A DNA stretch of 58,727 nt from Alphaproteobacteria bacterium. GTDB taxonomy: Bacteria; Pseudomonadota; Alphaproteobacteria; UBA7879; VGCX01. The stretch is from assembly GCA_016869935.1 (NCBI GenBank), contig VGCX01000001.1, positions 1 to 58,727 on the forward strand, written 5' to 3'. The notes beneath the pieces were generated by a model that made no database searches, had not been told where the DNA came from, and saw only the letters and a program-made list of their open reading frames with translations. The number at the start of each line of letters is the position of its first letter. Position 1 is the stretch's first letter. Below are positions 22,487-27,060 of this stretch, piece by piece. The position numbers and the translations under genes are program-made.

Positions 22487-22522
22487 ATCTCTCGCCCTTC
22501 ATCAGGCGGGAGATTTTATTTT
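22487..22522 (+). terminator. Rho-independent terminator after the His-rich gene
   Basis: The 10-bp stem atctctcgcc / ggcgggagat (one G-U pair) has an 8-nt loop and is followed by tttatttt. Confidence 0.55.
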
Positions 22523-22571
22523 GACAAGATTCCCCCTTCTCCTTCACAATAAAAATAAGAGGATAACCAGT

Positions 22572-23270
22572 ATGAAAAAATCAATTCTTTTCACCTTTTT
22601 ATGGGTCATTTTTTGTATAAGCCCCCTCAACAATTCAGAAGTTGTTTGGGCTAAAGGCAAGTCAGGCGGCAAATCTAATCCTGCAGATCAAGGTAGCGGC
22701 AATGATGGATCTGGAGGTGGAGGTGATGTGGCGGATGGTTCTCAAGACGGTTCTCAAGACCCTGGTGATAACGGCGGAGATAGCGGCGGCGTAGACGGCG
22801 CTGATGGTAATAGCGGAAACGATGGGAATGATAATGGGGGCGATACTTCTTCTGACGGGTCCTCTGATGCCTCTGGAGGGAATTCTGCCACACCCCCCAA
22901 ATGGGATGATAGTGCAATGTCATCGAGCAAACTGGCCCCACCCCCACCGCAAGAAGCTGTTGAATGCTTTGGCATTATGGGCGCAGGACAAAATGACAAC
23001 GTTTTTGTTGATGTGGATGGGCGTCAATATGGATACGGCGAAGCGCCAGCATGTCATCCTTTAGCCTCTATTAAACTTCCCAAAGACAGTCTCTATATGT
23101 GTGAAAATATTACAGTGGGTCGAACAGAAAAGGGGGAGCTTATTCGAGGATCGTTAAAACCCGATCCCGATCGCCGGTCCCCAATAGTTTGTTATCCTTA
23201 TGATTTTATTAAGCAAAAAATCACCTATATGAATCCCGATTATGCAGTCCCCCTCCGTGGTTTCAATTAG
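22572..23270 (+). CDS. Secreted DUF2282-like (bufferin BufA-like) protein with a long G/D/S-rich spacer
   Basis: AAGAGGA RBS before ATG 22572 and signal peptide MKKSILFTFLWVIFCISPLNNSEVVWA. ECFGIMGAGQNDN resembles the DUF2282 core C(Y/F)G(I/V)xxAGxNDC. There are four Cys in the C-terminal domain. The 3' end overlaps the DUF692 gene. Confidence 0.55.
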   Translation: MKKSILFTFLWVIFCISPLNNSEVVWAKGKSGGKSNPADQGSGNDGSGGGGDVADGSQDGSQDPGDNGGDSGGVDGADGNSGNDGNDNGGDTSSDGSSDASGGNSATPPKWDDSAMSSSKLAPPPPQEAVECFGIMGAGQNDNVFVDVDGRQYGYGEAPACHPLASIKLPKDSLYMCENITVGRTEKGELIRGSLKPDPDRRSPIVCYPYDFIKQKITYMNPDYAVPLRGFN

Positions 23271-24078
23271 TGCCGGTATTGGGTTGCGTCCCAATCATCT
23301 GGAAGAATTTATAAAAACACAGCCGCCCATTTCTTGGATCGAAGTCATTCTTGAAAACCATCGCTCAGGGGTCCGCCGCCAAGCACTGGAGAAGCTTCGA
23401 TCCACCTATCCCTTAAGTGTTCATAGCATTGGATTATCCCTTGGAAAGGCAGGTCCCCTTTCCAAAGATCACCTACGTCTTCTAAAAGAATTTTGTGATA
23501 TTTTTGATCCTTTTCTTGTTTCTGATCATGTAGCATGGACAGGAACGGATGATATTTTTTTGAACGACCTTCTGCCCCTTCCCTATACAGATGAATCTTT
23601 AAAAATTATTGTAGACCATATCCAAGAGGTCCAGGATTTCTTAGGACGTCAGATTTTAATTGAAAATTCTTCTAGTTATTTGACCTTTAACACATCAACA
23701 ATCGACGAAGCGGATTTTATGATTGCACTGGCACAACAAAGTGGATGTCTGATTTTGCTGGATGTTAATAATGTTTATGTCAGTAGCCATAATCATGGAT
23801 GGGATGCCATGCGCTATATCAGCAAAATCCCCGGATCTTTAGTTGGCGAAATTCATTTAGCCGGCCACCAAAAAGTCCAAGTGCCCAATCATCAAACGAT
23901 GCTTATCGATCATCATGGGGACTTTGTTGCAGAAGATGTGTGGAGTCTTTACGAAAAAACCCTGACCCTTTTAGGGCCCAAACCGACCCTCATTGAATGG
24001 GATACGAACATCCCCTCCCTTGATACAATTTTAAAGGAATCTTCTAAAGCTCAGGCGTATCTGAAGCGACTTCAATGA
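23242..24078 (+). CDS. DUF692-family multinuclear non-heme iron oxidase (MNIO; MbnB/BufB-like)
   Basis: GIGLRPNH, WIEVILEN, VHSIGLSLG, VSDHVAW, NDLLPLPYT, LIENSSSY, LLDVNNVYVSSHNHG and EIHLAGH follow the DUF692 consensus along the whole length. Confidence 0.82.
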   Translation: MQSPSVVSISAGIGLRPNHLEEFIKTQPPISWIEVILENHRSGVRRQALEKLRSTYPLSVHSIGLSLGKAGPLSKDHLRLLKEFCDIFDPFLVSDHVAWTGTDDIFLNDLLPLPYTDESLKIIVDHIQEVQDFLGRQILIENSSSYLTFNTSTIDEADFMIALAQQSGCLILLDVNNVYVSSHNHGWDAMRYISKIPGSLVGEIHLAGHQKVQVPNHQTMLIDHHGDFVAEDVWSLYEKTLTLLGPKPTLIEWDTNIPSLDTILKESSKAQAYLKRLQ

Positions 24079-24821: not shown

Positions 24822-24849
24822 ACTATAGTGCTGTTAAAAAAATTGTCAA
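24822..24849 (-). promoter_or_regulatory. Sigma70-like promoter TTGACA-N16-TATAGT for the 24485-24775 gene
   Basis: On the minus strand TTGACA is at 24849-24844 and TATAGT at 24827-24822. The same architecture recurs in the three downstream repeat modules. Confidence 0.55.
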
Positions 24850-24884
24850 TAGGTTTTTATTTTTATTTTTGGTTTATAAGAAAA

Positions 24885-25841
24885 ATGATAGAAAAAATTA
24901 ACTTTCAGGAATTAAACAACATTTACGTTCTAAGCAAATGCTTGCATATGCAATCAGCAGCTAATGCCCTAAAAATGCCAAAGTCAACGCTTCAGAATCA
25001 TTTGGAAGCTGTTGAGAAACGTCTGGGTGCAAGAATTTTTGAGCGCAGCCAAAAGTCTGGAGAAATGCTTCTCACCGCCTTTGGAAAGAATATTATTCCT
25101 AAAATTCAAGATATTCTGTGGCTTGCTGGCTCTCTATCTGCAACGGACGGCTTTTCAAAAGAAAAGAATAACTCTGGGGAGGTTTCTATTATGTCTACCC
25201 AAACAATCCTTGAAAACTACATTTGCCCAAATGTTAGAGAGCTTCTTGTTGAAAACCCTGAAATTAAGCTTTCTTTGAAGCAAAAAGACGAAAATTATTA
25301 TAGCCAACCCAATGTTAATGAAATATTTATTGGATGCTGGGAAGACAATACTGAAAATTACGAGTATTTTTTCTTTCATACATACACTCAAACCCTATGG
25401 GCTTCAGAACAGTACTTAGCATCTAATCCTCCCATTAATGAAATAAATGATCTGAAAGGCCATACTGTGATTTGCTTAAGAAGCATCAATGAGCATGAGT
25501 ATATAGCAACACAAGATTCGTTTTTCAAAAAATTAGCCCATATTAAAAATGAGATCAAAGTTCTTAGTGTGGCAGGTCCACGTGCAACAGACGTGTTGGC
25601 TGAAAACGGTGCAGGACTTATTTTGTGCGCTTCCGAATCTGTACGCCTTTGTGGACTAAAGTTAGAACCAGTTCTGCCTAGCGTAGTTGGGGAAACTGTT
25701 AATATTTACGTAAAAGTGCACAAGCAGTTTTTGAAATGGCCCCTTGCAAAGTTTATGGTTGACTGGATTTTTATGTGTAGAGACAAATCTCTCTCCTCTA
25801 TCGGAGTTCTTCCTGCAGAGCATAAGCCTTTACAACTCTGA
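24885..25841 (+). CDS. LysR-family transcriptional regulator
   Basis: N-terminal wHTH (LHMQSAANALKMPKSTLQNHLEAVEKRLGARIFERS) and a substrate-binding C-terminal domain. I prefer the start at MIEKINF (24885). Confidence 0.85.
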   Translation: MIEKINFQELNNIYVLSKCLHMQSAANALKMPKSTLQNHLEAVEKRLGARIFERSQKSGEMLLTAFGKNIIPKIQDILWLAGSLSATDGFSKEKNNSGEVSIMSTQTILENYICPNVRELLVENPEIKLSLKQKDENYYSQPNVNEIFIGCWEDNTENYEYFFFHTYTQTLWASEQYLASNPPINEINDLKGHTVICLRSINEHEYIATQDSFFKKLAHIKNEIKVLSVAGPRATDVLAENGAGLILCASESVRLCGLKLEPVLPSVVGETVNIYVKVHKQFLKWPLAKFMVDWIFMCRDKSLSSIGVLPAEHKPLQL

Positions 25842-25906
25842 GATGGAACTCCTTCTTTGAACAAAATGCCAAATGCTAGAGGAATCATTGCTTTTAAGCT
25901 TTTGTG

Positions 25907-25975
25907 TTAAGGCATTGTTGCGCAAGATAAGACATTTACACTTAATATTAAAAACGACACTCTATAAATCCACAT
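25907..25975 (-). CDS. Small hydrophobic peptide, copy 1 (22 aa: MWIYRVSFLILSVNVLSCATMP)
   Basis: Hand translation with GGAGA RBS 6 nt before the ATG and a promoter at 26023-26050. It is conserved in three paralogous copies with mostly synonymous or conservative changes. Confidence 0.55.
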   Translation of the reverse strand: MWIYRVSFLILSVNVLSCATMP

Positions 25976-26022
25976 TATAATCTCCAATGCTCTTACTATG
26001 TTAATATACCGCGGGTTTCTCT

Positions 26023-26050
26023 AATCTATTCTCTACCTTTAATTTGTCAA
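26023..26050 (-). promoter_or_regulatory. Sigma70-like promoter TTGACA-N16-TAGATT for peptide copy 1
   Basis: On the minus strand TTGACA is at 26050-26045 and TAGATT at 26028-26023. Confidence 0.55.
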
Positions 26051-26101
26051 CTTTTCATTGAAAAAATTTCGATAATGTATAATCAAAAAAAATACCTTGA
26101 T

Positions 26102-26119
26102 ATAACCATACATGGTTAT
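26102..26119. promoter_or_regulatory. Perfect palindrome ATAACCAT-AC-ATGGTTAT (candidate LysR-type operator)
   Basis: 8-2-8 inverted repeat downstream of a plus-strand TATAAT (gataatgtataat). An identical copy lies at 26929-26946. The middle module has a degenerate version. Confidence 0.45.
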
Positions 26120-26332
26120 GAAAAAAATCTAATTTTAATATAAAAGCTAATTAAAAAAAGACTCCGTAGAGGTTTTCGTAAAAGTTCATAGAGAATTCGC
26201 AGAACACGCCCTTGGAAAATTCATGATCAACTGGATTTTTCACTGCAGAGATCGTCTTTTTTTGGAGAATAAAATAACGCCCTCTTACGAATTTACTCCC
26301 CTCTAAAAACTATCTCTAGACTACTTAAAGCC

Positions 26333-26401
26333 TTAAGGAAACGTCGCATAAATCAGCACATTCACTGACAACACGAAAAACGACACTTTATAAATCCACA
26401 T
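26333..26401 (-). CDS. Small hydrophobic peptide, copy 2 (22 aa: MWIYKVSFFVLSVNVLIYATFP)
   Basis: Same architecture as copy 1: GGAGA-ctata-ATG, promoter at 26443-26470, same length and the same CCT TAA end. Confidence 0.55.
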   Translation of the reverse strand: MWIYKVSFFVLSVNVLIYATFP

Positions 26402-26442
26402 TATAGTCTCCAAATTTTAAATGAAATTTTAATCTAGGATTT

Positions 26443-26470
26443 AATGTATGCGCCGCCTTGAATTTGTCAA
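26443..26470 (-). promoter_or_regulatory. Sigma70-like promoter TTGACA-N16-TACATT for peptide copy 2
   Basis: On the minus strand TTGACA is at 26470-26465 and TACATT at 26448-26443. Confidence 0.55.
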
Positions 26471-26735
26471 CATATTCCTGGAAAAAATTCTAACTCTATT
26501 CTTCCATGTACTTCTTAAGAAATGATTTTGATGGTTTTTGAAAAAAATCTAATATTAATATAAAAGCTAATTAAAAAAAGACTCCCTAGAGATTTTCTTA
26601 AAGGTTCAGAGAGTATTTGCAGAAGATACCTTCGGAAAACTTATGCTCAACTGGATTTTTGCAACTAGAAACAAATTATGCACTTCGCTTGAGATCTTTT
26701 CGAAGATCAGAGGAATCATTTATTTGATAGATATC

Positions 26736-26804
26736 TTAAGGCATCGTTGCGCAAAAAAAGGCATTCAAAGTCAATACAAAGAACGATACTTTATAGGTCC
26801 ACAT
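26736..26804 (-). CDS. Small hydrophobic peptide, copy 3 (22 aa: MWTYKVSFFVLTLNAFFCATMP)
   Basis: Same architecture as copy 1: GGAGA-ttgta-ATG, promoter at 26850-26877, same length and the same CCT TAA end. Confidence 0.55.
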   Translation of the reverse strand: MWTYKVSFFVLTLNAFFCATMP

Positions 26805-26849
26805 TACAATCTCCAAATTTATGAAACATTCGCTTAACAAGGCCATCTT

Positions 26850-26877
26850 AATCTATTAGAAGGCTTAAATTTGTCAA
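26850..26877 (-). promoter_or_regulatory. Sigma70-like promoter TTGACA-N16-TAGATT for peptide copy 3
   Basis: On the minus strand TTGACA is at 26877-26872 and TAGATT at 26855-26850. Confidence 0.55.
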
Positions 26878-26928
26878 CTTTTCATTGAAAAAATTTCGAT
26901 AATGTATAATCAAAAAAAACACCTTGAT

Positions 26929-26946
26929 ATAACCATACATGGTTAT
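26929..26946. promoter_or_regulatory. Second copy of palindrome ATAACCAT-AC-ATGGTTAT, upstream of the MFS transporter gene
   Basis: Identical 18-mer, about 115 bp upstream of the MFS start at 27061. Confidence 0.45.
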
Positions 26947-27060
26947 GAAAAAATTCATATTTTAATAAAAGTTTTTTGTTTAGAAATTCTTTGAATTAAA
27001 TTTGAAAAGACTACCCTCAGACCCTTGTCAATCATTGGGCTTTCTATTATAAGTATTTTC

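Follow-up and report, generated by a model that had tools for sequence, protein, structure and literature searches.

Very short hydrophobic peptide genes paired with the 3' ends of LysR-type regulator genes in uncultured alphaproteobacteria

What is the role of three very short genes that lie in tandem between a LysR-type regulator gene and an MFS transporter gene in an uncultured alphaproteobacterium? The question is raised by contig VGCX01000001.1 of a metagenome-assembled genome (GCA_016869935.1). Positions 1 to 58,727 of this contig were analyzed, and this whole stretch of 58,727 nucleotides (nt) is referred to here as the window. The genes, pep1, pep2, and pep3, are each predicted to encode a hydrophobic peptide of 22 codons and were first read, from the letters of the DNA alone, as a type I toxin-like array. 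The comparisons reported here indicate that they are genuine, translated genes under selection and that they belong to a previously unannotated peptide family in uncultured alphaproteobacteria. They also indicate that the functional unit is a two-gene module, which consists of a LysR regulator and a peptide gene placed tail-to-tail at its 3' end. This linkage to the LysR 3' end is the strongest clue to peptide function.

The coordinates, strand, and peptide sequences given for pep1 to pep3 in the original prediction were recovered unchanged (Table 1). Each open reading frame (ORF) is 69 nt long and sits in a tandem unit of about 403-426 nt. GGAGA was found 5' of each ATG as described, with a gap of 5 nt, or 6 nt if counted from GGAG, and every unit carries the expected TTGACA-N16-TA(G/C)ATT promoter-like site on the minus strand, with a match of 10/12. 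Two figures were corrected. The promoters had been placed 35-40 nt 5' of the ATG, while the -10 hexamers end 41-47 nt upstream, and a recount of the differences between pep1 and pep2 gave 20 of 69 nt instead of 21. The same units were present in independent contigs and, therefore, the array is not an assembly artefact. Contig L003, which comes from an independent metagenome, contains all three units at 99.6% identity to the window and encodes identical peptides, L006 spans pep3 and most of pep2, and L001 spans pep3.

Purifying selection on a translated peptide had been proposed from the three copies, and this was confirmed. The Nei-Gojobori ratio of nonsynonymous to synonymous substitutions (dN/dS) among pep1 to pep3 was 0.08-0.28, and third codon positions hold 8-11 of the 15-20 differences. 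The case was strengthened by comparing the proportions of synonymous (pS) and nonsynonymous (pN) differences in frame 0 with those in the shifted frames. Of 14 comparisons, 13 had a pS above pN in frame 0, and the 14th pair has a 1-nt difference. Three near-identical pairs among the 14 are uninformative. The 11 comparisons below 80% nucleotide identity, which include orthologues and paralogues, gave a pS of 0.54-0.90 versus a pN of 0.20-0.36 in frame 0, a more than two-fold excess in each, while pS was at most about as high as pN in either shifted frame. Frame-breaking indels in orthologous loci had been named as a sign against coding; the peptide ORFs of the copies and strains compared contain no frameshift and no premature stop. 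When units 1 to 3 of the window are aligned, indels are seen in the flanks and none inside the ORFs. The synonymous sites of LysR are saturated between the window and locus L011 (pS 0.81), so the retention of the ORFs does not result from recent common ancestry. The peptide array is also a local hotspot of variation. L003 differs from the window at 13 positions, all of which lie in the array (26127-26760), and none was found in the compared 737 nt of LysR or in the 1.2-kb MFS gene. Two of these differences fall inside pep3, and both are synonymous.

Other readings of the same DNA were tried and rejected. Antisense ORFs were considered as true genes, and none is open through all three copies. 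A longer protein made by read-through of the peptide stop was considered as well; the downstream frames differ among the copies, a sister strain has an indel after the pep3 stop, and no conserved read-through frame was found after the peptide stop. Gene callers place a plus-strand ORF, made up of a LysR tail remnant and the antisense of pep3, at 9640-9771 of L001 and 6805-6930 of L002. These ORFs correspond to about 26640-26840 on the plus strand of the window, and pep3 itself was left uncalled.

The wider family was found through the regulator. Homologues of the adjoining LysR protein were collected, and the surrounding DNA was inspected downstream for small convergent ORFs; a genome scan with the single LysR protein gave no match, and a scan with a LysR alignment gave matches. 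The result was 20 distinct peptides of 22-27 amino acids (aa), encoded in 12 LysR-peptide modules at 11 loci (the window and 10 more). All of the ORFs start with an ATG that has GGAG, GAGG, or AGGA 5-9 nt upstream. All 20 peptides end in Pro followed directly by the stop, and this Pro is the sole invariant residue. It is encoded by CCT, CCA, CCG, or CCC, so it is the residue that is under selection. Amino-acid conservation also extends to the N-terminal motif and the hydrophobic core. Examples are MYLYKLSFLMLSMNMLLCATMP and MWLYRMAFAALSVNTLVCATFP from L011, MYHVYKIAFFAIAFNVISCATMP from L016, MALFSLTAFVLAIVSVIPVGMP from L013, MNKLYNLAVKYVYAVTVLTMAIGFTLP from L017, and MTKLHNVSVRCVYAMALLVATAGCTMP from L024, a Tara contig; L038 encodes three peptides. 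A Cys is present four residues from the C-terminus in many members and is absent from pep2 and from the peptides of L013, L023, L017, and L025.

The grand average of hydropathy of the peptides is 0.8-2.1, their hydrophobic moment is low, and there is one basic residue near the N-terminus. Their hydrophobicity profile is like that of SHP, ComS, and Ibs and unlike that of the amphipathic phenol-soluble modulins. Neither a lipobox ([LVI][ASTVI][GAS]C) nor an AXA site followed by a mature protein was found; only 3-4 residues follow the Cys, and L, F, or V is often found at positions -1 and -2. Pfam (10 members) and NCBIfam (9 members) gave no peptide match at E <= 10, and Rfam gave only noise both at the gathering threshold and at E <= 5. 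The three peptides, concatenated, had no match among 5.8 billion protein clusters, and a degenerate peptide pattern had none among viral contigs. A literature search for links between LysR and short hydrophobic peptides or type I toxins found nothing relevant.

The association with LysR was seen throughout the family. Each LysR gene at 56-86% identity, plus the paralogous LysR genes of L017 and L033, has 1-3 small ORFs on the opposite strand downstream, and the peptide gene is convergent with LysR in all 12 modules. The distances from stop to stop outside the window are 23, 21, 6, 96, 91, 2, -4, 1, 1, 13, and -4 nt. With so little or no intergenic space, the LysR and peptide mRNAs probably overlap at their 3' ends. 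Two complete LysR-peptide modules lie in tandem in L017, and L033 has a distinct peptide type with a paralogous LysR. No convergent peptide ORF lies downstream of the LysR homologues with 45% identity or less, and the only candidate near one of them, in L018, is divergent and upstream of its LysR. A scan for hydrophobic ORFs that end in Pro and are preceded by a Shine-Dalgarno (SD) sequence gave only seven outside the family in 293 kb, two of which are candidates beside the distant LysR in L018, and every family member that the scan found sits directly 3' of a LysR gene or of a LysR tail remnant. The neighbours other than LysR vary among the peptide loci. No NCBIfam equivalog was found for the LysR of the window.

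The LysR tail remnants show how the array of the window may have arisen. The repeat units had been described as containing decayed sequence of the adjacent LysR, interrupted by stops. This sequence proved instead to be the last ~50 codons, still in frame, of a different, paralogous LysR. Between the adjacent LysR tail and the remnants of units 2 and 3, 42-44% of positions differ, and 29% differ between the two remnants. The remnants remain in frame for 37-50 codons, the unit 2 remnant to its own stop and the unit 3 remnant for at least 37 codons, and they read NWIF where the adjacent LysR reads DWIF. The end of the unit 2 remnant is similar to the LTPSFSYTPI that ends the paralogous L033 LysR, and pS is still above pN in the LysR frame of the remnants. 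These comparisons indicate that the window holds one intact module (LysR and pep1) and two units (pep2 and pep3) from a second, paralogous module. In the simplest history, two paralogous LysR-peptide modules would once have been neighbours, an arrangement still seen in L017. Deletion would then have reduced the second LysR to its last ~50 codons, after which the unit of tail, peptide gene, and promoter would have been duplicated. A later exchange between units is suggested by the 90% identity of the unit 1 and unit 3 promoter regions.

Multiplication took other forms elsewhere. Tail remnants are also found beside extra peptide genes in L025, L024, and L033, and peptide genes evidently outlive their own LysR. 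In L011 and L038, two to three peptide ORFs lie about 110 nt apart under one promoter of the TTGACA-N16-TAGTTT type. These differences among loci suggest that the peptide copy number rises repeatedly and by different routes. Contigs L015/L016, L023, L013, and L035 end 160-570 nt past the first peptide gene, and the contig of LysR homologue P0123 (JGI 3300059473, 9 kb) has 2.9 kb without a called gene after LysR. Both observations would fit longer repeat arrays that break assemblies.

Table 1. Positions of the peptide genes, their candidate signals, and neighbouring features in the window
Feature	Position	Strand	Evidence or remark
MbnB/TglH/ChrH-family (DUF692) enzyme gene	23242-24078	opposite to the peptide genes	Pfam E = 1e-95
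LysR-type regulator gene, 318 aa	24885-25841	+	Pfam HTH_1 and weak LysR_substrate; NCBI-annotated MBM3609934.1
pep1, 22 codons, MWIYRVSFLILSVNVLSCATMP	25907-25975	-	ORF; pS/pN; stop 65 nt from LysR stop, tail-to-tail
Shine-Dalgarno GGAGA of pep1	25981-25985	-	
Promoter-like site of pep1, TTGACA-N16-TAGATT	26023-26050	-	10/12
Candidate operator, 13-bp dyad TTTTCA-A-TGAAAA (T-N11-A form)	26052-26064		1 nt upstream of pep1 -35
Perfect 18-bp palindrome ATAACCAT-NN-ATGGTTAT, copy 1 of 2	26102-26119		unit 1
Paralogous LysR tail remnant, last ~50 codons, LKKDSVEVFVKVHREFAEHALGKFMINWIFHCRDRLFLENKITPSYEFTPL then stop	26151-26306	+	C-terminal ITPSYEFTPL then stop; antisense is pep2 3' untranslated region (UTR); T7 run 26153-26159
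pep2, 22 codons, MWIYKVSFFVLSVNVLIYATFP	26333-26401	-	ORF; pS/pN
Shine-Dalgarno GGAGA of pep2	26407-26411	-	
Promoter-like site of pep2, TTGACA-N16-TACATT	26443-26470	-	10/12
Second paralogous LysR tail remnant, LKKDSLEIFLKVQRVFAEDTFGKLMLNWIFATRNKL...	26571-26702	+	antisense is pep3 3' UTR; T7 run 26573-26579
pep3, 22 codons, MWTYKVSFFVLTLNAFFCATMP	26736-26804	-	ORF; pS/pN; both within-species polymorphisms inside are synonymous
Shine-Dalgarno GGAGA of pep3	26810-26814	-	
Promoter-like site of pep3, TTGACA-N16-TAGATT	26850-26877	-	10/12
Second T-N11-A dyad, TTTTCA-A-TGAAAA	26879-26891		1 nt upstream of pep3 -35
Perfect 18-bp palindrome, copy 2 of 2	26929-26946		unit 3, between pep3 and MFS gene

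The best overall explanation, which we hold with about even confidence, is that these loci encode a family of membrane-acting micro-peptides whose expression is tied to LysR. Each peptide would be made from its own strong sigma-70-type promoter and ribosome-binding site. It would probably form one short helix inserted in the inner membrane, its N-terminal Lys or Arg on the inside, and would act there through an Ibs-like membrane perturbation or through modulation of a membrane partner; any toxicity is no more than possible. The tie to LysR would operate in cis through mutual interference of the convergent LysR and peptide mRNAs, which probably overlap because their stops are separated by only -4 to 96 nt. 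It would probably operate in trans as well, where the T-N11-A dyad next to the -35 may be bound by a regulator.

Some candidate control elements fit this explanation. A TTTTTC-G-GAAAAA dyad is found at the equivalent place in L038, with the 6-1-6 form kept and different arms. The perfect 18-bp palindrome occurs only twice in the 58.7 kb, both times in the array, and the dyads and palindromes may both serve as operators. Terminator-like hairpins for the peptide strand span the LysR 3' end or lie within it in L011 and L025, and a weak hairpin is found at 26581-26614 on the minus strand, in the pep3 3' UTR. On the plus strand of the window, no terminator-like site was found between the LysR stop and the MFS gene.

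A number of observations weigh against this explanation. The best 15-residue hydrophobicity is 1.7-2.0 in most members, which is only moderately over the usual transmembrane threshold. The putative promoters, terminators, and operator of the peptide genes are consensus matches only, and promoter-like sites are not commoner in the array region than in shuffles. The dyad of pep2 is only a 5/6 version, L011 has none, and T/A-rich dyads are easily found in AT-rich DNA and may be due to chance. The LysR upstream region has no 9-mer in common with the peptide promoters, and the motif conserved 5' of LysR has no second copy at these promoters. As for control in cis, the final 40 codons of LysR show no more conservation at synonymous sites than the rest of the gene and, thus, no conserved RNA element was seen in the overlap. 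LysR mRNAs are also usually scarce and, hence, poor antisense silencers of a strongly transcribed gene.

The alternative that survives best is the classical type I toxin-antitoxin system, in which each peptide would be a membrane-depolarizing toxin controlled by its own cis antisense small RNA (sRNA), as in ibs/sib or bsrG/SR4. We consider it unlikely. The peptide family does resemble Ibs/Sib, Ldr, Zor, AapA, BsrG/SR4, and Fst/RNAII in the peptide, which is very short and hydrophobic and has a single basic residue close to its N-terminus, in the several diverged copies within repeats of a few hundred nt (~420 nt here), each with its own promoter-like site, and in the convergence with another transcript, as in 3'-overlapping type I systems. 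The tail of the partner gene is also kept beside every orphan peptide gene. The idea of a type I-like locus was upheld as far as small, hydrophobic, selected peptides with their own promoter and ribosome-binding site in multiple copies are concerned, and it gained no support from the search for an antisense promoter, from mRNA folding, or from the family searches.

The plus-strand antisense promoter that had been proposed corresponds to the SD-ATG spacer, read in reverse complement, of the genome of the window only; the spacers of the orthologues differ and contain no such site. In the scanned orthologous loci, no antisense promoter-like site was found at a conserved position over the peptide start, and no Rfam antitoxin RNA was found. 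The sole recurrent plus-strand promoter-like site lies within the LysR codons FLxWP...FMV, matches at 9/12, and has lost its -35 in the orphan units. Sequestration of the ribosome-binding site had been suggested as something that folding might reveal, but the mRNAs were no more structured than shuffles (z = +0.1 to +1.5) in single-sequence folding, which can miss specific local pairing. The family also differs from the known type I toxins in having no sequence or profile similarity to any of them in Rfam, Pfam, or NCBIfam. The operons of two to three peptide genes under one strong promoter in L011 and L038 are unusual for such toxins, and strict vertical linkage to one regulator clade is untypical. 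Finally, the partner is a protein-coding LysR mRNA rather than a dedicated sRNA. From the arrangement of the loci, only the LysR mRNA itself appears able to supply antisense RNA to the peptide genes, and a toxin with this mRNA as its antisense partner is possible.

A peptide pheromone, which we regard as a slimmer prospect, would also be compatible with a gene that is always beside a transcription factor. The peptide would be a precursor that is inserted, cleaved, and exported, and a fragment of it, or the peptide itself, would be sensed, directly or indirectly, by the cognate LysR, in the manner of Rgg/SHP, ComR/ComS, and PrgX/PrgQ. These systems also have a 17-27-aa signal-peptide-like gene directly beside a transcription factor. 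The arrangement is convergent in group III Rgg/SHP, convergent transcription overlaps in prgX/prgQ, and regulator-peptide pairs duplicate and diverge together, as do the modules described here (the two modules of L017 and the paralogue of L033). Like the SHP, ComS, and iCF10 precursors found in Firmicutes, the present peptides have the appearance of signal peptides without a mature protein, and they match the form of these precursors in length, in the basic residue near the N-terminus, in the hydrophobic core, and in a C-terminus that is short and conserved. Several diverged peptide variants are retained per locus. If this explanation were correct, LysR and peptide might form specificity pairs, and the orphan peptide genes could be extra signals or inhibitors. 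However, these genes persist after their own LysR was lost, and the regulator is of the LysR type (HTH_1 and LysR_substrate) and not of the RRNPP/TPR type. To our knowledge, no LysR regulator binds a peptide. No exporter, processing protease, or importer of oligopeptides is linked in the flanks. The peptides, which come from a Gram-negative alphaproteobacterial host, end in Pro, in contrast to the Gly-Gly or acidic motifs of the SHPs.

A still lower probability is given to a leader or arrest peptide, for which the C-terminal Pro provides the main attraction. PheL ends in TFP followed by the stop and TnaC in Pro followed by the stop, and the family resembles PheL, IvbL, and TnaC in being a short hydrophobic ORF with this ending. 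Slow termination at the Pro-stop would let ribosome occupancy of the ORF set how far the antisense transcript reaches into LysR, and the peptide would be functionless in trans. Read-through from an ORF that ends -4 to 96 nt from the LysR stop would indeed be antisense to LysR. In contrast to the known leader peptides, there is no co-directional gene downstream, only LysR in antisense or the next peptide unit, and there are no runs of one regulatory codon. Amino-acid conservation runs through the whole peptide, including the N-terminal motif and core, and would be unnecessary in a device that only stalls ribosomes. In the L011 and L038 arrays, moreover, the upstream ORFs precede another peptide gene and not LysR.

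Small subunits of membrane proteins were also considered. AcrZ, MgrB, MgtS, KdpF, and CydX are conserved single-helix micro-proteins under purifying selection, as the present peptides would be. They are single-copy and usually co-transcribed or co-regulated with a membrane partner, while the peptide family has no conserved membrane partner nearby and a copy number of 1 to at least 3. In the window, the candidate partner would be the adjacent MFS transporter, and the peptides had been suggested as modulators of it. Given the loci compared, there is very little chance that they are accessory subunits or modulators of this MHS-family protein. The pep3 gene is divergent from the MFS gene, the distant LysR paralogues of L018, L021, and L026 are also near MHS-family MFS genes (33-34% identity), and L018 has a candidate 25-aa Pro-ending ORF between LysR and MFS. 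However, none of the 10 other peptide loci has an MFS gene in its flanks, and MFS orthologues at 63-84% identity have no upstream peptide wherever upstream sequence exists. Orthologues at 63-67% identity (the L008 protein at 64%) keep the downstream genes for a Dps-like protein, a 163-aa protein, ApaG, and TrkH, and have unrelated genes upstream with no LysR and no peptide. The suggested link to MFS was rejected on the basis of this synteny.

The distant LysR paralogues, which have 32-43% identity, are adjacent to MFS in L026 (1415-2479), about 1.3 kb from it in L018 (7-888 and 1771-1848), and about 3 kb from it in L021 (1695-2927). The L018 ORF, MKKHTAIVLSYASALSAVVVAFGAP, is 25 aa long, ends in Pro, and is preceded by an SD sequence. 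The pairing of LysR with MFS may be older than the peptide family.

It is hardly credible, finally, that the peptides are precursors of a ribosomally synthesized and post-translationally modified peptide (RiPP) for the MbnB/TglH/ChrH-family enzyme, even though the enzyme gene is 1.8 kb off in the window and in L011, many members have the C-terminal Cys, and tandem, diverged precursor genes are common in RiPP-type clusters, for the enzyme is absent from the remaining peptide-bearing loci, already has its own candidate substrate gene overlapping upstream, and lies on the opposite strand with LysR in between, and the Cys is not conserved. The overlapping upstream gene (window 22521-24078 and L011 1604-3062, with the DUF692 gene) encodes a protein of 232-249 aa whose N-terminus resembles a signal peptide and which also has a long stretch rich in Gly, Asp, and Ser and a C-terminal part that contains Cys (ECFGIMGAGQNDN...). 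The two genes look like a bufferin-type precursor-enzyme pair, and no recognisable partner protein gene was found.

Genes of 22-27 codons fall under annotation cut-offs, and gene callers make spurious antisense ORFs over them. The family would provide a concrete pairing of a micro-peptide with LysR, the largest bacterial transcription factor family. If the peptides are toxins, they would form a type I-like system with a regulator mRNA as the antisense partner. If they are signals, they would represent a new kind of Gram-negative peptide sensing, the first LysR-based and the first alphaproteobacterial counterpart of Rgg/SHP or PrgX/PrgQ. Either way, the module could serve as a marker for a poorly known group of uncultured alphaproteobacteria.

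Two further observations concern the regulator gene. Synonymous divergence along LysR is mosaic between L017 (1760-2728) and L025 (5001-5960) and between L024 (4995-5957) and L035 (4001-4963). One of these pairs has a pS of 0.64 in the first 40 codons versus 0.04-0.15 later, and the other has 0.07 early versus 0.5-0.8 later, which suggests recombination within the regulator gene between lineages. Directly 5' of the LysR start, at 24822-24866, lies a T-rich element of about 30 nt (TCAATAGGTTTTTATTTTTATTTT(A/T)GGTTT) that is near-identical in seven lineages: the window, L011, L016, L013, L023, L017, and L024. The element falls in no conserved reading frame, and no SD sequence precedes LysR itself. 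On its minus strand, the element contains an 11/12 promoter-like site, TTGACA-N16-TATAGT, directed away from LysR. The element probably serves as divergent promoter and control region for the classical target of LysR, a poorly conserved protein of 125-215 aa encoded 430-580 nt away.

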